Origin: a virus | Lineage: Duplodnaviria; Heunggongvirae; Uroviricota; Caudoviricetes | Length of the DNA: 10,575 bases | Virus record (IMG/VR): IMGVR_UViG_2690315994_000024 | Strand: one strand, 5' to 3' | Part shown: positions 1-10,575 of the stretch, piece after piece | Position numbering within the stretch: the first letter of the stretch is position 1 | Layout of the letters: the number at the start of each line of letters is the position of its first letter | Program-made: the position numbers and the translations under genes | The notes under the pieces: generated by a model | What the model was told of the DNA's origin: nothing | Databases searched by the model: none | What the model saw: only the letters and a program-made list of their open reading frames with translations

Positions 1-987
1 AAAGTCACCTTTACGATCGACTGGTTCAACATCAGCAGCGCGTCCCGGGTAGGGACTATCAAAATTTATAACCTCTCGGCAGATACTGTGAACCGAATTA
101 CCGGGCAGGAGTTTTCGAAAGTGCGTCTGATTGCGGGTTACGACGGTATCGCGCCGGAAGTGTCGGCAAGCGACGTCGGGACAGTGCGGGAAGTTGACGC
201 GGCGGACGTGGGCCAGAGTGATGGTCGCAACTACGGACTGATTTTCAGCGGTGAAATTCGCTACTCGGTTACAGGAAAAGACAGTCCGGTTGATTCCTAC
301 GTCCTGATTCAGGCAGCAGATACTGATCTGGCTTTTGCCACCAGTATAACCTCACAGACGCTGGCTGCCGGTTACACGGTCGCTGATGTAAACCGTGCGC
401 TGATGAAAGACTTCGAAGCCAAAGGCGCGACCGAAGGCCTGACGCCTGAAATGCCTGCTACTGTATTCCCCCGGGGGCGGGTACTCTTTGGCATGACGCG
501 GCATCTAATGGATAACGTAGCCGGGCAATGTGGCGCAACATGGCAATTCGTGGATGGTCAGCGCCAGATGGTGGCGAATAACGAATATGTTCATGAAGCG
601 ATTGTGCTCAACAGCGCTACCGGGCTTATTGGCATGCCGCAGCAGACTATCGGTAACGGCGTAAACGTCCGCGCGCTTATTAATCCGAACATCCGGGTTA
701 ACGGACTTATTCAGCTGGATCAGGCTTCCGTGTATCGTACCGCCTTGTCGAACAACGATATTGCGATGGCTGGTGGTCAGATCACCGACCAGAACACGGA
801 TGGAAATATCACGCTAAGCGGCACCACATCGCAGCCTGCCAGCATCGCAACGGATGGCGTTTATATTGTGCGCGGGATTATGTACACTGGCGACACAAGG
901 GGCCAGGCGTGGTACATGGATATGATGTGCGAAGCGCGCGGTGCGCAGGATATGCCATCCAGCACTGCTTTGCAGAGAGGATTATAG
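1..987 (+). CDS. Phage tail/baseplate structural protein, 5'-truncated by the window edge (hub-like by position upstream of the spike gene)
   Basis: Frame 1 is open from nt 1 with no stop until TAG 985-987, so the gene starts upstream of the window (the track's GTG at 88 is internal). It heads a chain of tightly coupled tail genes. Product is assigned from synteny only; I recognise no motif. Confidence 0.5.
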   Translation, partial: KVTFTIDWFNISSASRVGTIKIYNLSADTVNRITGQEFSKVRLIAGYDGIAPEVSASDVGTVREVDAADVGQSDGRNYGLIFSGEIRYSVTGKDSPVDSYVLIQAADTDLAFATSITSQTLAAGYTVADVNRALMKDFEAKGATEGLTPEMPATVFPRGRVLFGMTRHLMDNVAGQCGATWQFVDGQRQMVANNEYVHEAIVLNSATGLIGMPQQTIGNGVNVRALINPNIRVNGLIQLDQASVYRTALSNNDIAMAGGQITDQNTDGNITLSGTTSQPASIATDGVYIVRGIMYTGDTRGQAWYMDMMCEARGAQDMPSSTALQRGL

Positions 988-989
988 AA

Positions 990-1337
990 ATGAAACGATG
1001 GATATTTTCATTGCTGGCGTTAGTGTCTGTTGGTGTAAGTGCAAACACCATAACGATGCAATGCGGCAACTTTCGTATGGATGCGATCCCTGACTCATTA
1101 TTTAAAATCAATGGCGAAACAGTAACATCCCAAAAAGTAAAAATGTTGGGTAAAGACGGTACAGGCATGCAGATCAAAATGGAGCTGATGCCTGCCAAAG
1201 ATGGCAACAATTATGGGTTCGAGTATATCCATCGACCGGGCACTAAAACGCGTTTCCTGAACGTCCAGTTGTTGCAGAACAGCATGGATGCTCCGAAAAT
1301 TATTGGCTCTTTCCCGTGTAAGAAAGTTGTTGGTTGA
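990..1337 (+). CDS. Small secreted protein of unknown function (predicted Sec signal peptide; two Cys in mature part)
   Basis: ATG 990 lies 9 nt after GAGAGG (974-980) and 2 nt after the upstream stop. N-terminus MKRWIFSLLALVSVGVSA has a basic n-region, hydrophobic core and VSA cleavage motif. The track's longer ORF from 909 overlaps the upstream gene and is unlikely to be the real start. Confidence 0.6.
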   Translation: MKRWIFSLLALVSVGVSANTITMQCGNFRMDAIPDSLFKINGETVTSQKVKMLGKDGTGMQIKMELMPAKDGNNYGFEYIHRPGTKTRFLNVQLLQNSMDAPKIIGSFPCKKVVG

Positions 1338-1344
1338 TTAAGAA

Positions 1345-1899
1345 ATGAGCAAGCGTTCGCCAATAGATACAACAGAAGAACAAAAGGCAATTGAGACTAT
1401 AGGCGCTGATTTTATTTCGTCATATTATAAAGATAGATATGAGGAAGCAAAATCAACATATCGTCGTCTTGAGGACAAAGTTAACTACCTTCTTGCTATT
1501 TTAGCTGTAGAAACCTCTGCTCTACTGGCTGTATTTGGGACTGTTGATTTCAAAAGTGGGCTAAAGAGTAATTGGTTTTTAACATTATCTATACTTTGTG
1601 CATATCTGTGCTTTGTTTGTATTGTTATGTGCTTTTTTTTCCTATGGCGTACTTGGGGACTGAAAGATATACCAAAAATGCCTATTCATAAGCGAAAAGA
1701 AGAGCATGATTTTTTACTTTACGGTGATAAAATTAAAACGCTTAGATACCATATGTTTCAGTATGGTAAAGCTGTTGAATTGATCGAAAGTCTTCATAAA
1801 GAAAAGGCAGTTTATGCTCGTTATCTTTTTGAAGGAATTGCGTTATCTTTCGGTTTTTTCATATTATCGGTTACTTTTCTTTTGATAAATAAGGCATAG
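1345..1899 (+). CDS. Predicted integral membrane protein (about 3 hydrophobic helices), unknown function; AT-rich cargo gene
   Basis: ATG 1345 follows the stop of the previous gene (TGA 1335-1337). Hydrophobic stretches LLAILAVETSALLAVFG, WFLTLSILCAYLCFVCIVMCFFFLW and IALSFGFFILSVTFLLI. Composition is visibly more AT-rich than the flanking tail genes. Confidence 0.6.
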   Translation: MSKRSPIDTTEEQKAIETIGADFISSYYKDRYEEAKSTYRRLEDKVNYLLAILAVETSALLAVFGTVDFKSGLKSNWFLTLSILCAYLCFVCIVMCFFFLWRTWGLKDIPKMPIHKRKEEHDFLLYGDKIKTLRYHMFQYGKAVELIESLHKEKAVYARYLFEGIALSFGFFILSVTFLLINKA

Positions 1900-1902
1900 T
1901 TG

Positions 1903-2073
1903 ATGACAACATCAAATAATGACAACTCACAGCAAAGTAAGCCAACGCAAGCAGAGCAATCCATGGCTGATTATGAAAGCAGTATAATGCTTGAAGTACC
2001 TTTTGATGGATTGGATTACATGACAGAAAGCGTTAAAGAACCTGAGTTGGACAATTTTAAACAGAAAAAATAA
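1903..2073 (+). CDS. Hypothetical small acidic protein (56 aa)
   Basis: ATG 1903 sits 4 nt after the stop of the membrane-protein gene and runs to TAA 2071-2073 (MTTSNNDNSQQSKPTQAEQSMADYESSIMLEVPFDGLDYMTESVKEPELDNFKQKK). It is followed directly by a terminator. Short ORF absent from the track, so low confidence. Confidence 0.3.
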   Translation: MTTSNNDNSQQSKPTQAEQSMADYESSIMLEVPFDGLDYMTESVKEPELDNFKQKK

Positions 2074-2092
2074 ACTTAGAGTTGTTCCTGTA

Positions 2093-2120
2093 GACCCGCC
2101 ACTTGGCGGGTTTTTTGTTT
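2093..2120 (+). terminator. Rho-independent terminator (GC stem CCCGCC/GGCGGG, loop ACTT, then TTTTTTGTTTT)
   Basis: Perfect 6-bp GC stem at 2095-2100 / 2105-2110 with a 4-nt loop, followed by a T-run at 2111-2120. It lies between the cargo ORFs and the spike gene. Confidence 0.65.
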
Positions 2121-2135
2121 TCAGGAGTTTATCAA

Positions 2136-2888
2136 ATGGCCATATCAGACCAGACTCGTAGCGGTGACCTTGCCGAAACATTCAAGTCCGAGCGGGAAAC
2201 AACAAAGAACCAGATCCGCGTCGCCTTGCCTGGCATTATTCAGTCATTCGATCCTGACGCGGTGACGGCGGTTGTGCAGCCAGCTATCCGTTCGGTTGAA
2301 AAGGATAACTACGGTAACCGCATTACCAAAAATTACCCATTGCTGGTGGATGTGCCAGTGGTATTCCCGCGCGGCGGAGGCTGTACGTTGACTTTTCCGG
2401 TAAAAGCCGGGGATGAGTGTCTTGTCGTTTTTGCCGATCGTTGTATTGATTTCTGGTGGCAGAACGGCGGGATACAGGAGCCTGTTGATGACAGAATGCA
2501 TGATTTATCGGATGCGTTTTGTATTGTCGGTCCCCAGTCGCAGGCGAGGAAGATTAGCGGTATTAATACCAGTGCCACACAGTTGCGTAGTGACGACGGC
2601 AGCACCTATTTTGAGCTTAATCCTGATACCAGGAAAATTAAAATTGTCGCTCCGGGTGGTCTTGATGTGGTTGCCCCTCTGGCTGATTTTTCTGAGAAAG
2701 TAACCATTCATGGCCTGTTAACCTGGATGGGTGGCATGGTGGGGTCTGTGGTTTCTGGTGTGGCTTCAAAAATCACTGGTGCTGTTGAGTTTTTGGGTAG
2801 CGTGAAGGCTAACGGCAAGCCAATCGATGATACGCACACTCATGGTGGTGTTCAGCGCGGTGGAAGCAATACCGACGGAGTAAACTGA
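2136..2888 (+). CDS. Baseplate spike / baseplate assembly protein V-like (P2 gpV / Mu gp45 family)
   Basis: ATG 2136 is preceded by AGGAG (2123-2127). The track's start at 2103 is TTG inside the terminator hairpin. C-terminal THTHGG...GGSNTDG resembles the His-rich apex motif I recall from P2 gpV. Position immediately upstream of W/J/I-like genes fits. Confidence 0.8.
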   Translation: MAISDQTRSGDLAETFKSERETTKNQIRVALPGIIQSFDPDAVTAVVQPAIRSVEKDNYGNRITKNYPLLVDVPVVFPRGGGCTLTFPVKAGDECLVVFADRCIDFWWQNGGIQEPVDDRMHDLSDAFCIVGPQSQARKISGINTSATQLRSDDGSTYFELNPDTRKIKIVAPGGLDVVAPLADFSEKVTIHGLLTWMGGMVGSVVSGVASKITGAVEFLGSVKANGKPIDDTHTHGGVQRGGSNTDGVN

Positions 2889-3241
2889 TGCGATACAGAC
2901 GTGAAGACGCCGATGGCGATTACACCTTTGGCAGCGGTGATGACACCTGGCTGATTAACTCACCGGAGGCCGTGGCGCAGGCGGTAAAAACGCGATTCGA
3001 ATTGTGGTATGGCCAATGGTTTCTCGACACCACCGAGGGGACTCCGTGGATCCAGTCCGTACTCGGTAAGCAGAAGCCGGAAACCTACAACCTGGCGATC
3101 CGTAAGCGCATCCTCGAAACGCAGGGCGTTAAATCAATCCTCTCTTTCAATACGACGGTGGATACCACGACCCGACGTGTCATGTTTTCCGCTGAAATCG
3201 ACACTCTTTATGGAATAACGACTGTTACATCGGAGGCGTAA
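2888..3241 (+). CDS. Small baseplate protein, gpW / Mu gp46-like by position
   Basis: Start overlaps the upstream stop (TGATG at 2886-2890). 117 aa, sitting between the V-like and J-like genes as in P2 (V-W-J-I-H-G). Assignment is by size and synteny only. Confidence 0.55.
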   Translation: MRYRREDADGDYTFGSGDDTWLINSPEAVAQAVKTRFELWYGQWFLDTTEGTPWIQSVLGKQKPETYNLAIRKRILETQGVKSILSFNTTVDTTTRRVMFSAEIDTLYGITTVTSEA

Positions 3242-4440
3242 TGGCTCTGAACCTTGATTCTCTCGGTTTATCTGCAAAGGTAACCGCGGAGGGGATCAGT
3301 GCGCCTGATTATCAGACGATACTCAGCACCCTGATTAGCTATTTTCAGCAGATTTATGGCAGTGATGCCTACCTCGAACCGGACAGCAAAGACGGCCAGA
3401 TGGTGGCTCTGATGGCGCTGGCGATTCATGATGCCAATAATATGGCGATAACTGTTTACAACTGTTTTTCACCGGCAACCGGCTATGGGGTTGCACTGAC
3501 CAGTAACGTGAAAATAAATGGTATTTCACGTAAAGGCGCGACGAACTCTACGGTTGATTTGCTTCTTACAGGAACTGCCGGAACAACCATCATTAATGGC
3601 AGCGTGAAAGACAGTAATAATGTGATATGGCGTTTGCCTGCTTCAGTGGTGGTCGGCGTGGATGGTACAGTGATGGTGACCGCAATATGTTCCGTCAGTG
3701 GTGCAGTGGCGGCGCTGGCTGGAACTATCACTGAAATTAATACACCAACCCGTGGCTGGGTTTCGGTAACCAATCCTGCTGCAGCCACTGTGGGCACTCC
3801 GGCAGAAACTGATGCGGAGTTACGTATCCGTCAGTCGCAAAGTGTTGCGTTGCCATCAATAACCCCATTTGAAGCACTGGATGGTGCTGTTTCTAATGTT
3901 GCCGGTGTAACCCGCCACAAACTCTATGAAAACGATACTGGTTCGGAGGACGGTAACGGGTTACCGCCACACTCTGTTGCTGTAATTGTGGATGGCGGTG
4001 ATGTGACGGATATTGCTCAGGCTATCAGAGGGAATAAAGGCCAGGGGACATCCACTCACGGTACAACATCCGTTACGGTTCCGGATAAATACGGCAATCC
4101 CCATGTAATCAAATTCTCGCGCTCTAGTGATGTGCCTGTTTATGCCCGGATTAAATTAAAAGTTTTTACGGGTTATACCTCACAGATAGGGCAGCAGATC
4201 CAGCAGGCTATTTCCGACTATATCAATAGTCTGATGATTGGTGATTCGGTCCTTTTAAGTCGCATTTACTCACCGGCGAATCTTGGCGTGGTGAGTGGCG
4301 GGAATGCACGCTATTACGATATTCAGGAACTGACGATTGGGAAATCCCCGGGGGCTTTGTCGTCATCAAACATTGATATCAGATACAACGAATCTGCGTC
4401 CTGTACACCGGAAAATATCGTTATAACGGTGGAGTCATGA
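3241..4440 (+). CDS. Baseplate J-like protein (P2 gpJ / Mu gp47 family)
   Basis: Start overlaps the upstream stop (TAATG at 3239-3243) with GGAGG at 3233-3237. 399 aa in the expected position between W-like and I-like genes. Confidence 0.75.
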   Translation: MALNLDSLGLSAKVTAEGISAPDYQTILSTLISYFQQIYGSDAYLEPDSKDGQMVALMALAIHDANNMAITVYNCFSPATGYGVALTSNVKINGISRKGATNSTVDLLLTGTAGTTIINGSVKDSNNVIWRLPASVVVGVDGTVMVTAICSVSGAVAALAGTITEINTPTRGWVSVTNPAAATVGTPAETDAELRIRQSQSVALPSITPFEALDGAVSNVAGVTRHKLYENDTGSEDGNGLPPHSVAVIVDGGDVTDIAQAIRGNKGQGTSTHGTTSVTVPDKYGNPHVIKFSRSSDVPVYARIKLKVFTGYTSQIGQQIQQAISDYINSLMIGDSVLLSRIYSPANLGVVSGGNARYYDIQELTIGKSPGALSSSNIDIRYNESASCTPENIVITVES

Positions 4441-5117
4441 GCAAATATACCGAACTAATCACGAACTACCACGCCACCAAACCTAAATTTCTTGCACATG
4501 TTGATCTGATGACCCGGCCGCTTATTGATGTTGCGGCGGCCACCAGAGGGCTGATTACTGCATTTGATATTGACTCTGCGGTTGGTGTGCAACTTGACAT
4601 TCTGGGATTGTGGATCGGACGTAGCCGTGTTGTCAGCCAGCCTATCTCAGGTGTCTATTTCAGCTGGGATACCGACGGGCTTGGATATGATCAGGGTGTA
4701 TGGCAGGGGCCATACGATCCTGATTCCGGATACATGTACCTCAGCGATGAAACTTATCGTGTCATCCTTAAAGCGAAGATTGCGATTAATAACTGGGACG
4801 GACGGAATGATTCGCTTCCAGCAATTCTTGACACTGCAACAGCAGGATCCGGGCTGCGAATGCAGATAGTCGATAACCAGGACATGACGATATCGGTCTG
4901 GGTCTTTCCTGATACTGATATTTCAGATGTATCGCGTGAGTTAATTGCGGCAATTAAACAGGGGTATCTAACAGTAAAAGCCGCCGGGGTATGGGCGGGG
5001 GGTATTGAAACACCTTCGGTGGAAACTCCATCGGAAGGCTCTAAATTTTTTGGTTTTGATATGGATAACGAATTCATCAGTGGTTTTGATGTAGGGGCAT
5101 GGGGAGTATTACTCTGA
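4437..5117 (+). CDS. Tail protein I-like (P2 gpI / Mu gp48 / e14 YmfQ-type, DUF2313-like)
   Basis: ATGA overlap with the upstream gene at 4437-4440. 226 aa, immediately upstream of the tail-fibre gene as in P2/Mu/e14. Confidence 0.65.
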
Positions 5118-5962
5118 TGGCGAAAAATGACTTTAAAGCGTTTGCAACTGATCGAAATGCCAATGTTATGTCGCAGGAGGAATGGGAAGCGTTGCCTGCG
5201 CTTATATCCGGATTTACAGCAGGGAAAGCATCCAGTGCGCAAGTCAATAAGGTTATTCGGCAGGCCAGCTTTATTGCTGCAGCTCTGGCCCAGTTTGTAA
5301 GTGATAAAACGCAACGGGATGTGCTTGATAATGGTGATCTGCCCGGTTTTGTTGAATTGCTGGGATCGGGGTTTGCTGTTGAATACCTGAGCCGCAAGAA
5401 TCCGTTTGGTGATATCAAATCGGATGGCACGGTGAAAACGGCTCTCGAAAACCTTGGTTTGGGAGAAGGTTCGGCATTACCCGTTGGGGTGCCTGTTCCG
5501 TGGCCTTCAGCCACTCCGCCAACAGGCTGGCTGAAATGCAATGGTGCGGCTTTTTCTGCTGAAGAATACCCGGAACTGGCAAAGGCTTACCCGACTAATA
5601 AATTGCCTGATTTACGCGGTGAATTTATTCGTGGCTGGGATGACGGTCGCGGGATTGATTCTGGTCGTACTTTGCTTAATTGGCAGCCACACACAATTTT
5701 GGACCATGCACACTATATGGAATTATGGACAGGGGACGGACTCGCCGCAGGAAGTGCACGGGAAGGAGTAAATCCAGGAATACTGGCTACATACGGTGAC
5801 GGGGGAATAGTTAAAACAGACGAACCCGGTCTTAGGGTGCCTTCCTCACTACGAGCTATTAGCTCCCGTAGTGTAAAACGTTTTGGTGAAATTAGTGGAA
5901 AGGTAGGTACAGAAACTCGTCCTCGTAACATCGCTTTTAATTATATTGTGAGGGCCGCATGA
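5117..5962 (+). CDS. Tail fibre protein: constant N-terminal part (Sc) fused at crossover site A to variable C-terminal domain Sv1
   Basis: ATG 5117 overlaps the upstream stop (TGATG) with GGGGAG 10 nt upstream, and is preferred over the track's ATG 5099. C-terminal part has a tail-collar-like motif ([21 protein letters not shown]...[17 protein letters not shown]). Crossover site lies in-frame at codons LGLGE. Confidence 0.85.
5442..5467 (+). other. Invertase crossover site A (hix/gix-like, 12-2-12): CTCTCGAAAACC TT GGTTTGGGAGAA
   Basis: Two imperfectly inverted 12-bp half-sites flank a 2-bp TT core. It resembles hixL (TTCTTGAAAACC AA GGTTTTTGATAA) as I recall it. It sits exactly at the Sc/Sv boundary of the tail-fibre gene, where sequence identity with the inverted Sv1 copy begins. 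Confidence 0.75.
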
Positions 5963-6052
5963 TGAATAAAGTTATCTTAAATAACGAACTCATTGCCATA
6001 AAAGCGGGAGACATTATCATTTATAATTATGATGGTGAAACGCGGGAATATA
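5454..6052 (+). repeat. Inverted repeat P, left copy (Sv1 variable domain plus first 31 codons of tfa1); reverse complement of 8303-8901
   Basis: Translations are identical in several frames on both strands (e.g. track ORFs 5541-5771 and 8584-8814; 5713-5931 and 8424-8642). Nucleotides were spot-checked at 5941-5970 against 8381-8410. Coordinates sum to 14355. Confidence 0.85.
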
Positions 6053-6066
6053 GACTCAATAATTAA
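5959..6066 (+). pseudogene. Truncated tail fibre assembly gene tfa1' (first 31 codons intact, then 4 foreign codons and stop)
   Basis: ATGA overlap with the tail-fibre stop at 5959-5962. [31 protein letters not shown] is identical to the N-terminus of the full-length 201-aa tfa1 on the minus strand (7791-8396), then diverges at 6052/6053 into RLNN-stop. Confidence 0.7.
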
Positions 6067-6343
6067 CATATACACATATTCACGCTCATTAATACAATCA
6101 TTTAAAGGAAACAACAAACTCATTGAGGATTATGAAAAAATCCTTATTGGCATGGCAGACAATAACAAAGATAAAACCATGTATAAGAGATTACATGATG
6201 CAAAAATAAATGTAATGGTAGATTATGCTCAAGGGATAAAAAATATTGATGCAGAGCTAAGAGATGCAGTCAATAAGGGATTCGACATTATCGACCAAGA
6301 AGTAAAGTCACTACAAATGAAATTAAACAAATTAGCTTCATAG
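6053..6343 (+). pseudogene. C-terminal fragment (about 97 codons) of the downstream cargo gene X, lacking its N-terminal half
   Basis: From DSIINIYTYSRSL... to the stop it is identical to the C-terminal part of the 215-aa ORF at 9603-10250 (-). The first 8 codons of the track ORF 6029-6343 are junction read-through. Confidence 0.7.
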
Positions 6344-6390
6344 AATGCTCCACTCCCTGTTCAATATTTTTACAAGCTTATCAGCCAACC

Positions 6391-6419
6391 GCAGCACGTT
6401 CTTGCATACGACGTGCTAC
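6391..6419. terminator. Hairpin between convergent X' and invertase copy 1 (possible bidirectional terminator)
   Basis: Stem AGCACGT (6393-6399) pairs with ACGTGCT (6411-6417) around an 11-nt loop. There is no clean T-run, so function is uncertain. Confidence 0.25.
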
Positions 6420-6423
6420 GGTT

Positions 6424-6978
6424 TCATTTATCTCCGACCGGAAACTTCTTATACAGTGTCGATATACCAACATCATAGATGATCGCCACCTTCTGGCGAG
6501 GAACGCCTGATGCAATTAATCGTCCGGCCTGCTCCCATTGTTCTGGTGTAAGTTTGGGGCGACGTCCACCAATTCGTCCCTGTGCGCGAGCTGCTTCCAG
6601 TCCAGCTTTTGTTCGTTCAACAATCAGTTCACGCTCCATTTCAGCCAGGGCACCCATCACATGAAAGAAAAAGCGCCCCATTGGGGTACTGGTATCAATT
6701 GAATCCGTCAGACTACGAAAGTTGATGCCTCGTTCGCGCAACTCCTCCACCAGCACGACAAGATGCCGCATACTGCGCCCCAGTCGGTCCAGTTTCCAGA
6801 CCACCAGCGTGTCACCTGCCGATAATGTCCTGAGCAGCTTTTTCAGTCCTGGTCTGTCGGACTTTGTACCGCTTATCTTGTCTTCAAAAATCAGCTCACA
6901 TCCTGCACAGTTCAGCGCATTACGTTGTAGATCGGTATTCTGGTCATTTGTTGATACACGTACATAGCCAATAAGCAT
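6424..6978 (-). CDS. pin: Site-specific DNA invertase, serine recombinase of the Hin/Gin/Pin/Cin family (copy 1)
   Basis: N-terminus MLIGYVRVSTNDQNTDLQRNAL contains the catalytic Ser in the YVRVSTNDQ motif; core VVWKLDRLGRS and SLTDSIDTSTPMGRFFFHVMGALAEMERELIVERT; C-terminal HTH (IYDVGISTLYKK). 184 aa from the conserved MLIGY start; the track's upstream ATG 7014 adds 12 non-conserved codons. Closest recalled relative is e14 Pin. Confidence 0.9.
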   Translation of the reverse strand: MLIGYVRVSTNDQNTDLQRNALNCAGCELIFEDKISGTKSDRPGLKKLLRTLSAGDTLVVWKLDRLGRSMRHLVVLVEELRERGINFRSLTDSIDTSTPMGRFFFHVMGALAEMERELIVERTKAGLEAARAQGRIGGRRPKLTPEQWEQAGRLIASGVPRQKVAIIYDVGISTLYKKFPVGDK

Positions 6979-7032
6979 GTTAAATTCCCCTGGTAAAAGC
7001 AGGAATGATGCCATTTGCTTGTTATTTCTTCA

Positions 7033-7058
7033 TTTTCATAAACGTTGGTTTGGGAGAA
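7033..7058 (+). other. Invertase crossover site B: TTTTCATAAACG TT GGTTTGGGAGAA
   Basis: Shares core and right half-site with site A and is the exact reverse complement of site C. It lies 20 bp upstream of the invertase copy 1 start, at the in-frame start of the Sv2 cassette. Confidence 0.75.
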
Positions 7059-7379
7059 GCGGCAAAACGGAATGTGGGAACTGGGGAAAATCAGATACCT
7101 GATATGTCATCATATGCATCAGGTTCAGGCTGGCGAAAAATGCCAGATGGTTCAATTGAACAGTGGGGACGAATTAGTTTTCCTAGTGAACACGGGCCTG
7201 TATCCGCCAATGTTTCATTCCCGATTCCATTTACACAGACACCGGGCATTGTAATTGTGTGCGATGGTGGTTTCGGGGGGGGGAATATGTGGGGGGCGAC
7301 CAACTGGAGCACTACCGGCTTCATAGCTCACTGCAATTATGGTCTTGAAGGTGGTGCGTTTTTCGCTAAGGGCTGGTAA
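7059..7379 (+). CDS. Silent tail-fibre variable cassette Sv2 (alternative C-terminal domain, about 107 codons), not fused to Sc in this isomer
   Basis: Reading frame continues in-frame from the GLGE codons of site B to TAA 7377-7379. Upstream codons [14 protein letters not shown] are antisense read-through of the invertase 5' region, not a real start. Contains a G9 tract at 7275-7283. Confidence 0.65.
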
Positions 7380-7819
7380 TGATGAAATATCTGTACGTAA
7401 ACAACCTGGCATATCCTTACGAACTTAAGTCTCTTTATGTTGAAAAAGGTGAGTGGCCTGAAGAAAAAGGTGTTGATATAGACGAAGTAATTTTCAGGGA
7501 ATATTTCTATGATACACCACCAGAAGGAAAATACAGATGTGTCGGAGAAGATGGACTGCCTGCATGGGTAGATATTCCTCCACCAACACGTGAAGAACAA
7601 ATTGCATCAGCCGAAACTAAAAAGCAGCAATTGATTAATCAGGCCAACGAATACATCAACAAACAATGGCCAGGTAAAGCATCAATTGGTCGTCTGAAAG
7701 GTGAGGAACTGGTGCAATATAATTTGTGGCTGGATTATCTGGACGCACTGGAGCTGATCGATACTTCCGGTGCGCCAGATATTGAATGGCCTACGCCTCC
7801 GGCAGTTCAGGCCAGATGA
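7379..7819 (+). CDS. Tail fibre assembly protein (Tfa) for the Sv2 cassette
   Basis: TAATG overlap with the Sv2 stop. C-terminus ...YNLWLDYLDALELIDTSGAPDIEWPTPP parallels the C-terminus of tfa1 (...LNAVLDYIDAVTATDTSTAPDVIWPELP). 3' end overlaps the convergent tfa1 by 29 bp, as in Mu U/U'. Confidence 0.75.
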   Translation: MMKYLYVNNLAYPYELKSLYVEKGEWPEEKGVDIDEVIFREYFYDTPPEGKYRCVGEDGLPAWVDIPPPTREEQIASAETKKQQLINQANEYINKQWPGKASIGRLKGEELVQYNLWLDYLDALELIDTSGAPDIEWPTPPAVQAR

Positions 7820-8396
7820 CATCCGGCGCTGTGCTGGTATCTGTTGCCGTCACCGCGTCAATGTAATCCAGCACAGCGTTAAGGCGGGTTGTTTCTGCCT
7901 GCGTCAGCTTCCGTCCGGCCTGTAATTTCAGTTGAATCAGACTGATGGAGGCCATTGCAGTATCAATCAGCGACTGGCGCTGTGCTTCTGCTGCATCTAC
8001 TGCTGCGCCGTGCTGTGCCTCGGTATCTGTCACCCATTTCTCACCATCCCATTTATCATATGGCGTTAATGGGGCGATAGTGGTTGTATTTTCAGGGTAA
8101 TCACCCGGAACTGTGATTTCTTTGGTATCTCCCGTTTCGGTACTATAGACAACTTCACCGCGATGGTCTGGCACATATTCCCATGAATTTAAATCTACAG
8201 AGCGACAGATTGCATAACCAGCTTTATGTGTACCTGGTGCATCCAAACAGGAACATGCCGGTATACCGACGCCGACAGCGAGATATTCAGTTGATGTAGA
8301 AATATATTCCCGCGTTTCACCATCATAATTATAAATGATAATGTCTCCCGCTTTTATGGCAATGAGTTCGTTATTTAAGATAACTTTATTCATCAT
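7791..8396 (-). CDS. Tail fibre assembly protein Tfa1, full length (201 aa), partner of Sv1
   Basis: Start overlaps the Sv1 stop on the minus strand. Its first 31 codons are duplicated in tfa1' at 5959-6051. Confidence 0.8.
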   Translation of the reverse strand: MMNKVILNNELIAIKAGDIIIYNYDGETREYISTSTEYLAVGVGIPACSCLDAPGTHKAGYAICRSVDLNSWEYVPDHRGEVVYSTETGDTKEITVPGDYPENTTTIAPLTPYDKWDGEKWVTDTEAQHGAAVDAAEAQRQSLIDTAMASISLIQLKLQAGRKLTQAETTRLNAVLDYIDAVTATDTSTAPDVIWPELPEA

Positions 8397-8901
8397 GCGG
8401 CCCTCACAATATAATTAAAAGCGATGTTACGAGGACGAGTTTCTGTACCTACCTTTCCACTAATTTCACCAAAACGTTTTACACTACGGGAGCTAATAGC
8501 TCGTAGTGAGGAAGGCACCCTAAGACCGGGTTCGTCTGTTTTAACTATTCCCCCGTCACCGTATGTAGCCAGTATTCCTGGATTTACTCCTTCCCGTGCA
8601 CTTCCTGCGGCGAGTCCGTCCCCTGTCCATAATTCCATATAGTGTGCATGGTCCAAAATTGTGTGTGGCTGCCAATTAAGCAAAGTACGACCAGAATCAA
8701 TCCCGCGACCGTCATCCCAGCCACGAATAAATTCACCGCGTAAATCAGGCAATTTATTAGTCGGGTAAGCCTTTGCCAGTTCCGGGTATTCTTCAGCAGA
8801 AAAAGCCGCACCATTGCATTTCAGCCAGCCTGTTGGCGGAGTGGCTGAAGGCCACGGAACAGGCACCCCAACGGGTAATGCCGAACCTTCTCCCAAACCA
8901 A
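8303..8901 (-). repeat. Inverted repeat P, right copy
   Basis: Reverse complement of 5454-6052; see left copy. Confidence 0.85.
8393..8887 (-). CDS. Silent tail-fibre variable cassette Sv1 (second, inverted copy of the domain currently fused to Sc)
   Basis: From [25 protein letters not shown]... to the stop it is identical to the C-terminal part of the expressed tail fibre. The track's N-terminal [14 protein letters not shown] is read-through into the invertase-proximal repeat. Confidence 0.75.
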   Translation of the reverse strand, partial: GSALPVGVPVPWPSATPPTGWLKCNGAAFSAEEYPELAKAYPTNKLPDLRGEFIRGWDDGRGIDSGRTLLNWQPHTILDHAHYMELWTGDGLAAGSAREGVNPGILATYGDGGIVKTDEPGLRVPSSLRAISSRSVKRFGEISGKVGTETRPRNIAFNYIVRAA

Positions 8902-8913
8902 CGTTTATGAAAA
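8888..8913 (-). other. Invertase crossover site C (reverse complement of site B): + strand TTCTCCCAAACC AA CGTTTATGAAAA
   Basis: Lies between the Sv1 cassette and invertase copy 2. Both repeat families (P and Q) meet and overlap precisely at this site. Confidence 0.75.
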
Positions 8914-8967
8914 TGAAGAAATAACAAGCAAATGGCATCATTCCTGCTTTTACCAGGGGAATTTAAC

Positions 8968-9522
8968 ATGCTTATTGGCTATGTACGTGTATCAACAAAT
9001 GACCAGAATACCGATCTACAACGTAATGCGCTGAACTGTGCAGGATGTGAGCTGATTTTTGAAGACAAGATAAGCGGTACAAAGTCCGACAGACCAGGAC
9101 TGAAAAAGCTGCTCAGGACATTATCGGCAGGTGACACGCTGGTGGTCTGGAAACTGGACCGACTGGGGCGCAGTATGCGGCATCTTGTCGTGCTGGTGGA
9201 GGAGTTGCGCGAACGAGGCATCAACTTTCGTAGTCTGACGGATTCAATTGATACCAGTACCCCAATGGGGCGCTTTTTCTTTCATGTGATGGGTGCCCTG
9301 GCTGAAATGGAGCGTGAACTGATTGTTGAACGAACAAAAGCTGGACTGGAAGCAGCTCGCGCACAGGGACGAATTGGTGGACGTCGCCCCAAACTTACAC
9401 CAGAACAATGGGAGCAGGCCGGACGATTAATTGCATCAGGCGTTCCTCGCCAGAAGGTGGCGATCATCTATGATGTTGGTATATCGACACTGTATAAGAA
9501 GTTTCCGGTCGGAGATAAATGA
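8968..9522 (+). CDS. pin: Site-specific DNA invertase, Hin/Gin/Pin/Cin family (copy 2, identical to copy 1)
   Basis: Same protein as 6424-6978. ATG 8968 is preceded by AGGGGA. This copy is in the canonical position, immediately outside the right crossover site. Confidence 0.9.
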   Translation: MLIGYVRVSTNDQNTDLQRNALNCAGCELIFEDKISGTKSDRPGLKKLLRTLSAGDTLVVWKLDRLGRSMRHLVVLVEELRERGINFRSLTDSIDTSTPMGRFFFHVMGALAEMERELIVERTKAGLEAARAQGRIGGRRPKLTPEQWEQAGRLIASGVPRQKVAIIYDVGISTLYKKFPVGDK

Positions 9523-9526
9523 AACC

Positions 9527-9555
9527 GTAGCACGTCGTATGCAAGAACGTGCTGC
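9527..9555. terminator. Hairpin between convergent invertase copy 2 and X (mirror of 6391-6419)
   Basis: Stem AGCACGT (9529-9535) pairs with ACGTGCT (9547-9553) around an 11-nt loop, starting 5 nt after the invertase stop. No clean T-run. Confidence 0.25.
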
Positions 9556-9602
9556 GGTTGGCTGATAAGCTTGTAAAAATATTGAACAGGGAGTGGAGCA
9601 TT

Positions 9603-10250
9603 CTATGAAGCTAATTTGTTTAATTTCATTTGTAGTGACTTTACTTCTTGGTCGATAATGTCGAATCCCTTATTGACTGCATCTCTTAGCTCTGCATCAA
9701 TATTTTTTATCCCTTGAGCATAATCTACCATTACATTTATTTTTGCATCATGTAATCTCTTATACATGGTTTTATCTTTGTTATTGTCTGCCATGCCAAT
9801 AAGGATTTTTTCATAATCCTCAATGAGTTTGTTGTTTCCTTTAAATGATTGTATTAATGAGCGTGAATATGTGTATATGTTAATTATTGAGTCTCTAGCA
9901 GAATCATTTAGTTTTGCAATGACATTCGCATTTTGCTCATAGAATGTGAAATTATCATCCCCTACAGGGAATGTGAGAATCAACATTTGTCCCGGTTTTA
10001 TATTATCAATGTGTGTTTTCATCCTTTTATTATATAAATTGATTAGGGTGAAAACTTCTCCCTTAACTCCTTTTAATACTGAAAGTTGTAATTCAAGGGA
10101 TTCTCTTTCTGTCTCTACTTTAGACAGCTTAGCTTGTTGGGTCACTCCTTTTAGGGTAAACCATCCGCCAATAAGAGTACCAACTAGAGCTGTGAGGGAG
10201 GAGGATAACCATCCAGGTATGCTATTTAAAAGATTACTAAATTCACTCAT
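9603..10250 (-). CDS. Cargo protein X: N-terminal transmembrane helix followed by a charged, probably coiled-coil region; unknown function
   Basis: 215-aa ORF in AT-rich DNA. N-terminus IPGWLSSSLTALVGTLIGGWFTL is hydrophobic; the rest is K/E/D/L-rich. Convergent with the invertase. Confidence 0.6.
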   Translation of the reverse strand: MSEFSNLLNSIPGWLSSSLTALVGTLIGGWFTLKGVTQQAKLSKVETERESLELQLSVLKGVKGEVFTLINLYNKRMKTHIDNIKPGQMLILTFPVGDDNFTFYEQNANVIAKLNDSARDSIINIYTYSRSLIQSFKGNNKLIEDYEKILIGMADNNKDKTMYKRLHDAKINVMVDYAQGIKNIDAELRDAVNKGFDIIDQEVKSLQMKLNKLAS

Positions 10251-10308
10251 TATAAGTACTCGCTAATATTGAACGATATATATATCAAATTATTATAAAA
10301 CTCGTCAG

Positions 10309-10575
10309 CTACTGGAGAAGGCTACCTGAACTTCGATCTATTCCTGCATCCATATAGTTGATGGTCTTCTGGAGCTCTTCGATTAGGGCAACAGCTTTTG
10401 CTCGAGAAATGCATATTAGTTGATCCGGAAATTCTTGTAAGGGCCAGTTTGGTATACAGGCCATGTTATCAGTGAAGGATGCAGACAAGTAAACTTCATT
10501 GGTAACCAGAGAATAGCTTACCTCAAAATTGGTGAGTTCCAGCAAACTGCTAACGTTTGACTCTTTTCTGCGCAT
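10309..10575 (-). CDS. Hypothetical protein upstream of X in the same orientation, possibly 5'-truncated by the window edge
   Basis: The ORF reaches the last base of the window (ATG is the final codon on the minus strand), so the true start may lie outside. AT-rich; no recognisable motif. Confidence 0.4.
   Translation of the reverse strand: MRRKESNVSSLLELTNFEVSYSLVTNEVYLSASFTDNMACIPNWPLQEFPDQLICISRAKAVALIEELQKTINYMDAGIDRSSGSLLQ

Follow-up and report, generated by a model that had tools for sequence, protein, structure and literature searches.

Why would a prophage place an expressed tail fiber gene directly ahead of a chaperone gene that ends after 35 codons? The question was raised by a preliminary description of the stretch of DNA analyzed here (the window, 10,575 nt in full), which proposed that fibers made from such a configuration may be defective unless the full-length chaperone gene is expressed in trans or an inversion brings it into place. 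The window corresponds to nucleotides 1–10,575 of CYBJ01000009.1, a draft contig of 183 kb (GCA_001284825.1), and contains the terminal part of an E. coli prophage abutting yfhH. The contig itself begins within the prophage. Genes within 1–5117 encode baseplate proteins: a hub (phrog_196), a spike (PF18352), a sheath initiator (so labeled by Pfam), Baseplate_J, and a DUF2612 wedge (4437–5117, plus strand; PF11041, E = 4.6e-47). The wedge gene precedes the fiber gene, an order that relatives keep. The expressed fiber gene, Sc::Sv1, lies at 5117–5962 (+) and encodes 281 aa with a Collar domain (PF07484) and matches to tail fiber PHROGs; the reading frame as listed runs from 5099 to 5962 (+, 287 aa), and gene callers put the start at 5117. 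Its constant part (Sc) extends to crossover site A, described below, and its variable part (Sv1) begins at 5456.

The truncated reading frame behind this gene, tfa1', was found where the preliminary description had placed it, at 5959–6066 (+), and it consists of 31 native codons followed by RLNN and a stop. The start may be at 5959 or at the second ATG at 5962, in keeping with the relatives' annotation (Tfa1 of 200 aa), in which case the stub has 34 codons. Residues 1–31 of the stub are identical to the start of tfa1 (201 aa), and this identity is not due to chance because it falls within a 604-nt perfect inverted repeat, in which 5449–6052 is the reverse complement of 8303–8906. The fiber stop and the tfa start overlap as ATGATGA both at 5959–5962 and at 8393–8396, and in five complete genomes, as well as in locus L006 (BDPE01000033.1), the end of Sv1 runs directly into the start of tfa1 with 100% identity. 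The sole full-length tfa1 is antisense at 7791–8396 (−, 200/201 aa), in agreement both with the preliminary description and with the list of open reading frames. Its product matched phrog_105 (E = 1e-97) and Caudo_TAP (PF02413, E = 1.5e-31, residues 79–200), and Caudo_TAP_N was listed beside the latter. A Pfam search of the 35-codon reading frame returned no Caudo_TAP domain and no match of any kind; the stub is without any chaperone domain because Caudo_TAP spans residues 79–200, and the stub keeps only 31 of 201 residues. We concluded that the 35-codon reading frame is, as judged from its sequence, a gene fragment and not a member of the Tfa family.

The other chaperone gene in the window, tfa2 (7379–7819, +, 146 aa), serves the Sv2 cassette, and its product matched Caudo_TAP (E = 6.4e-32) and phrog_188. 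Tfa2 and Tfa1 shared 33% identity over the C-terminal 79 residues only, and their N-terminal parts were unrelated. The section of PMC9608196 that summarizes North et al. 2019 describes the N-terminal part of Tfa as the variable, fiber-binding module, and the conserved C-terminal part as driving trimerization. That is, because the fiber-binding part of Tfa2 is unrelated to that of Tfa1, Tfa2 is unlikely to stand in as the chaperone for Sv1. A search of PDB sequences with Tfa1 yielded no matches.

In total, the locus has three crossover sites for Pin and carries the invertase gene twice. Site A (5442–5467, +) is a 26-bp site of the Din type with the sequence CTCTCGAAAACC TT GGTTTGGGAGAA, and its core TT is at 5454–5455. 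Site B (7033–7058, +; TTTTCATAAACG TT GGTTTGGGAGAA) is a direct repeat of A, whereas site C (8888–8913, −) is inverted relative to both and has the same core TT and right half GGTTTGGGAGAA. The format fits the Din 26-bp consensus given in a table by Forde et al. (PMC4134206), and the right half of site A is the repeat of the e14 P segment, TTGGTTTGGGAGAAGG, published in PMC12529663. Site A differs from B and C at a single base directly left of the core (5453, C vs G), as would be expected if exchange occurred at the core and the left halves remained with their own flanks. The two pin genes, copy 1 at 6424–6978 (−) and copy 2 at 8968–9522 (+), encode an identical serine DNA invertase of 184 aa with a Resolvase domain (PF00239, E = 1.6e-51) and HTH_7 (PF02796). 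Residues 1–181 of Pin were colinear with the Gin structure 3UJ3 (E = 1e-95), and Ser9 was present in the query (MLIGYVRVSTNDQ); from this alignment we read pin as intact and Gin-like. If the 5' part of pin includes the Fis-dependent recombinational enhancer of this family, the enhancer is duplicated together with the gene.

Each defining sequence feature of the Din family that was compared was found in the locus. Its recombinase is a serine recombinase with a resolvase domain, a C-terminal HTH and a Ser near residue 9–10; its 26-bp sites share an asymmetric 2-bp core and are inverted around a segment; and one site lies within the fiber gene, such that the fiber C-terminus is swapped together with the downstream assembly gene. 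On these features the locus is assigned to the invertible tail fiber switches of the Din family (Gin/Cin/Pin/Hin), nearest to Pin of e14. The e14 P segment with PinE (stfP-tfaP / tfaE-stfE - pinE) has the same crossover sequence, TTGGTTTGGGAGAAG(G), and the same gene order: a split fiber gene, two convergent tfa genes, and a fragment reading frame abutting pin. In the window, the fragments are a second copy of Sv1, an ATG-initiated stfE-like reading frame (8393–8941, −) whose stop overlaps the tfa1 start, and the stfE-like Sv2 cassette (7005–7379, +), which carries a Gp53-like_C domain (PF21882) and starts antisense to the 5' end of pin. The Gin/G system of Mu and the Cin/C system of P1 (Sc/Sv-U, Sv'-U') are likewise built from a serine invertase (colinear with Gin over the 181 residues noted above), 26-bp sites, and a 2-bp core, and their inversion also exchanges the fiber C-terminus along with its own assembly protein. 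They differ from the window in having two sites and one invertase, and in that each orientation pairs the fiber with an intact chaperone.

With three sites, more than one inversion is available. We simulated breadth-first every inversion between oppositely oriented sites, and obtained exactly four isomers arranged in a cycle. The window itself (S0) expresses Sv1 followed by the 35-codon stub; S1 expresses Sv1 followed by full tfa1; S2 again expresses Sv1 followed by the stub; and S3, a plain tandem duplication, expresses Sv2 followed by tfa2. Simulated inversions kept the reading frame, giving a 287-aa frame for Sc::Sv1 and a 229-aa frame for Sc::Sv2, with a tfa gene after each. Inversion between A and C placed full-length tfa1 directly behind Sc::Sv1, so the proposal that this inversion would cure the pairing was borne out by simulation; inversion between B and C did not have this effect, and the stub thus follows the fiber gene in two of the four isomers. 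Tail fibers of this type usually require a phage-encoded chaperone, as a general statement (PMC9608196), and each orientation of Mu expresses its own pair of fiber and assembly protein. For these reasons, particles made from S0 or S2 would probably lack functional Sv1 fibers, as no cognate chaperone would be encoded in cis.

The stub would be harmless if Tfa1 were supplied in trans, but we consider this unlikely. Candidate sources are the pin-proximal operon of the Sv1 fragment and tfa1 (8941 to 7791, minus strand), read-through from the neighboring gene for a 215-aa protein (orf215), flipped sister copies of the genome, and a TfaE-type paralogue of another prophage; the median number of places with pin/tfa regions in an E. 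coli genome was 3. The overlap of the tfa1 start with the stop of the stfE-like fragment adjoining pin is consistent with supply from the operon, as is a study of K-12, in which a phenotype was ascribed to the equivalent pin-proximal reading frame, StfE2, implying its native expression (PMC12529663). However, scans for promoter and terminator consensus sequences stayed at background level, with no promoter-like site upstream of 8941 on the minus strand, and folding of the gap between orf215 and pin gave a 13-bp hairpin, a putative terminator and a candidate stop to read-through. In classical Gin/Cin switches, moreover, the distal cassette is silent.

The stub is the novel joint of an extra, duplicated block. 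This block spans 1,591 bp (5449–7039), is revealed by two inverted repeats (I1 and I2), and contains the tfa1 5' end, Sv1, a crossover site, the second identical pin, and the 3' half of the 215-aa gene. The first repeat is the 604-nt repeat described above, and the second, of 1,011 nt, pairs 6049–7059 with the reverse complement of 8887–9897. Together they make 5449–7059 a circularly permuted, inverted copy of 8303–9897, and a base-by-base check found two mismatches only between the copies, at 5453 and 6051. A three-way comparison placed the joint at 6052|6053, where codon 31 of tfa1 is followed by sequence from midway through the 215-aa gene, and the two share 1 nt of microhomology. A chimeric reading frame of 104 aa (6029–6343, +) crosses the joint; it begins with eight out-of-frame tfa1 codons and continues with the last 96 residues of the 215-aa protein. 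The parent gene of this duplicated half is at 9603–10250 (−) and adjoins pinE in the relatives too; its product had no match in searches of Pfam, PADLOC, and PHROG.

We searched widely for a second instance of the joint. A megablast search of 5,426 complete E. coli genomes with 5900–6200 found none, and the matches were half-length only, breaking at 6049–6052. A 36-nt pattern across 6052|6053 had no match in one-genome-per-species contigs, IMG/VR, or JGI metagenome contigs, and the phage collection gave no match crossing 6052|6053. Protein look-ups by exact identity likewise found nothing for the stub (35 aa), the chimera (104 aa), or the 287-aa reading frame. In the canonical relatives (strain 2011C-4251, MINF_1D, O55:H7 CB9615, and L006), the locus at yfhH has the order DUF2612 - Sc::Sv - tfa - tfa(−) - Sv(−) - pinE - 215-aa gene(−) - yfhH, with a single copy of each and no such block; pinE and tfaE are the RefSeq names of the relatives' genes. 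Both switch orientations occur among these relatives, which is an indirect sign that the segment inverts in vivo. When the A-to-B interval was removed from the window, a locus of 8,984 nt remained, and one inversion then made it colinear with L006 at 99.7% identity over 8,030 nt.

Several simpler origins of the joint were tried and rejected. A secondary (quasi) crossover site was rejected on the finding that the AAACC..GGTTT pattern is present in neither parental sequence. Integration at site A of a circle bearing a crossover site was rejected as the primary event, as it presupposes an existing duplication. A single illegitimate inversion needs an a|d joint and leaves no duplication, and the window retains the a-b and c-d continuities. 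A simulated tandem duplication followed by inversions, in contrast, reproduced exactly the permuted relation between 5449–7059 and the reverse complement of 8303–9897.

We therefore put somewhat better than even odds on a history in which the duplication is real, the switch is an ordinary one, and tfa1' is the duplication joint, a pseudogene scar and not a designed feature. The proposed start state is a canonical switch in a myovirus-like prophage, Sc - ix - [Sv2 tfa2 / tfa1 Sv1] - ix - pin - orf215, where ix denotes a crossover site. With the switch at Sv2-ON, the 1,591-bp block would have been tandemly duplicated by illegitimate recombination at the 1 nt of microhomology, and two later inversions would have given the order seen in the window. 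These inversions could have been mediated by Pin at the ix sites, or by RecA between the 604-nt and 1,011-nt repeats. The outcome would be a locus with a third ix site and a second pin gene that cycles through S0–S3, with tfa1' being the joint read in reverse. The anatomy, the cycle of four isomers, the uniqueness of the joint in the collections searched, and the canonical form of the relatives are direct results, and from these we infer both the reality of the duplication and this order of events. The reading offered in the preliminary description was thus supported in part: the stub lacks Caudo_TAP, the Tfa2 N-terminus is unrelated, and inversion between A and C brings full-length tfa1 behind the fiber gene, but the stub marks a duplication joint rather than one of the normal isomers of the switch.

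The survival of the duplication may be explained by protection from deletion in S0 and S2. Because the repeats are inverted in these two isomers, homologous recombination should flip the copies there and never delete them; deletion would be possible in S1 and S3. If the duplication is real, part of any population with active Pin must be in S0 or S2, whatever the contig shows.

What the contig shows is itself open to a reservation. The canonical k-mer spectra of S0, S1, and S2 were identical up to k = 600, and S0 could be separated from S1 only beyond the 604-nt repeat; therefore, short reads could not phase these isomers. If the assembly was made from short reads, the isomer printed in the contig is a path choice and not an observation. 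The phrase ‘in this isomer’ in the preliminary description accordingly holds for the contig as assembled, but its phase is unprovable by short reads. It is possible, though we lean against it, that the duplication is real while the phase of the contig is arbitrary or that of a minority, such that cells are mostly S1 or S3 with an intact chaperone in cis. The shared k-mers are consistent with this, and cultures are mixed for the orientation of such inversion switches, with inverted fractions of 26–30% in wild-type and empty-vector K-12 cultures (PMC12529663) and about 50% in EC958 (PMC4134206). On the other hand, the contig crosses the repeats, suggesting that some linking information was available, S0 and S2 alone would be protected from homologous deletion, and both must arise in part of the population when Pin is active. 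If the duplication is real, the locus would be a natural experiment on the Tfa requirement of a Collar-type tip, with one fiber produced next to its cognate Tfa gene in some isomers and apart from it in others. It would also illustrate how an inversion switch can gain crossover sites through duplication, and how inversion can then stabilize the duplicate.

The duplication could also be an assembly artifact, in which a canonical single-copy strain had both orientations in culture and sequence from the other orientation was incorporated into the main contig; we regard this as a tentative alternative, rather improbable but deserving weight. The joint is carried by one draft contig that begins within the prophage, and has no counterpart in the complete genomes or in the genome, viral, and metagenome contig collections. 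The region 6053–9522 (orf215 3' half, pin minus, ix, invertible segment, ix, pin plus) is what a merge of both orientations would be expected to yield, and the copies are 100% identical, though a recent event predicts identity as well. Forde et al. warn that merging contigs of alternative orientation into the chromosome creates artifactual duplications at such loci (PMC4134206), and L009, a 2.6-kb contig of another assembly, has pin fragments at both ends (pin-flanked palindromic ends). The artifactual duplications of EC958 described in the same work (Forde et al. 2014, PMC4134206) concern the same kind of locus, and they likewise appear in the assembly as inverted duplicate copies of the cassette and invertase. 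They differ in that they came from separately assembled contigs of alternative orientation, which alone does not explain the tfa1|orf215 joint. Indeed, a mixture of the two canonical isomers does not yield this joint, and graph or overlap assemblers do not make a 1 nt overlap; blunt concatenation of contigs or an accepted chimeric read would be needed. If a de Bruijn assembler was used, the joint would have to have existed in the reads, because a 1-nt overlap is too short for such an assembler to create a joint. Were the block an artifact after all, it would serve as a warning that drafts of invertible prophage fiber regions may hold spurious duplicate invertases and truncated genes, and that a contig may present an isomer that no real molecule has. 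Knowledge of Din switches and Tfa chaperones is unchanged in either case, and the system is of a known kind that carries a one-off rearrangement or a mis-assembly.

If we return to a real duplication, the stub state could be regarded as a selected, programmed OFF state of fiber production, or as related to defense, by analogy only to the host functions claimed for products of the e14 P segment (PMC12529663). We give this reading almost no credence. The stub state was found in none of the relatives examined, nor in the 5,426 genomes; the joint is blunt and inside two coding sequences; and it leaves an unrelated gene with a second, truncated copy.

A real duplication might instead be the first step from a two-site Din switch to a multi-site, shufflon-like system of the type of Min of p15B, at the price of a phase-variable, chaperone-less state in two of the four isomers, although we think this improbable. 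Inversion would turn the tandem duplication, including a site and an invertase gene, into inverted repeats that cannot be deleted by homologous recombination. Min has six crossover sites, and in both systems more than two sites allow more than two isomers; some configurations of Min are reportedly expected to be non-productive, a view attributed to Sandmeier, Iida and Arber in the early 1990s. Unlike the window, Min has a single invertase gene that rearranges several different Sv cassettes. The third site of the window comes from a perfect duplicate, which adds a scar and a second invertase gene but no new cassette, and the likeness to Min is superficial.

The closest comparison remains that with e14, from which the window departs in two respects. 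The prophage of the window sits at yfhH and not at the e14 site, and e14 has mcrA at the place of the 215-aa gene. The window also has the extra 1,591-bp block, and with it the third site, the second pin, and the truncated tfa.

The joint of the 1,591-bp duplication created a chimeric open reading frame (6029–6343, + strand), in which eight codons of the chaperone gene tfa1, read out of frame (MMVKRGNI), form the N-terminus and run on, in frame, into the last 96 residues of a 215-aa protein. The frame follows the fibre gene, and transcription of the late operon could therefore extend into it. A 13-bp hairpin occurs at 6387–6423 and again at 9523–9559, each time in the spacer where the invertase gene pin converges with the 215-aa gene, and is possibly a terminator; its z-scores relative to shuffled sequences are −2.1 and −3.3, respectively. 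In the duplicated copy, the hairpin would meet read-through from the late operon before that transcription entered the first pin copy in antisense.

The two cassette frames nearest to pin (7005–7379, +; 8393–8941, −) each begin with an ATG, and their first 18 codons, which encode the same peptide, lie antisense to the pin leader and crossover site, as in stfE of the K-12 element e14. A 2025 paper (PMC12529663) claimed that StfE2, the K-12 equivalent of these frames, blocks T2 adsorption.

We also compared the fibre joint with that of BDPE01000033.1, a relative with the canonical single-copy locus that is otherwise 99.7% identical. Over 23 nt to the left of crossover site A (4470–4492 in the relative versus 5431–5453 here), the relative carries sequence of the pin-side half-site instead. 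The swap alters residues of the joint, over a 15-residue stretch compared, and keeps the reading frame; it may have arisen by local conversion, be left over from an earlier rearrangement, or reflect an error in the assembly.

The short contig QZLQ01004179.1 (1–2566) comprises the invertible segment with a 72-codon pin fragment at each end, the two in inverted orientation; such a layout is the hallmark of an assembly in which the two orientations of the switch were merged. Record ON470588.1 (‘Escherichia phage vB_EcoM-611R5’), labelled a ‘complete phage genome’, includes the host genes yfhH, pgpC and tadA (10387–12470). That record represents a predicted prophage region, not a genome recovered from particles, and therefore does not demonstrate that this prophage family is inducible.

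At the prophage end, the 215-aa gene (9603–10250, −) adjoins pin and had no matches in Pfam, PADLOC or PHROG; the 88-aa gene (10309–10575, −) matched only phrog_17793, a family annotated as of unknown function. Both are kept beside pinE at the prophage end in many E. coli, at the place held by mcrA in e14, and are possible morons expressed in lysogeny. Three small genes (115, 184 and 56 aa; 990–2073, +) separate the hub gene of the baseplate from the spike gene. The N-terminus of the 115-aa protein resembles a signal peptide, and the 184-aa protein, a member of phrog_18554 (likewise annotated as of unknown function), weakly matched PycTM, a model for Pycsar effectors (E = 9e-4).
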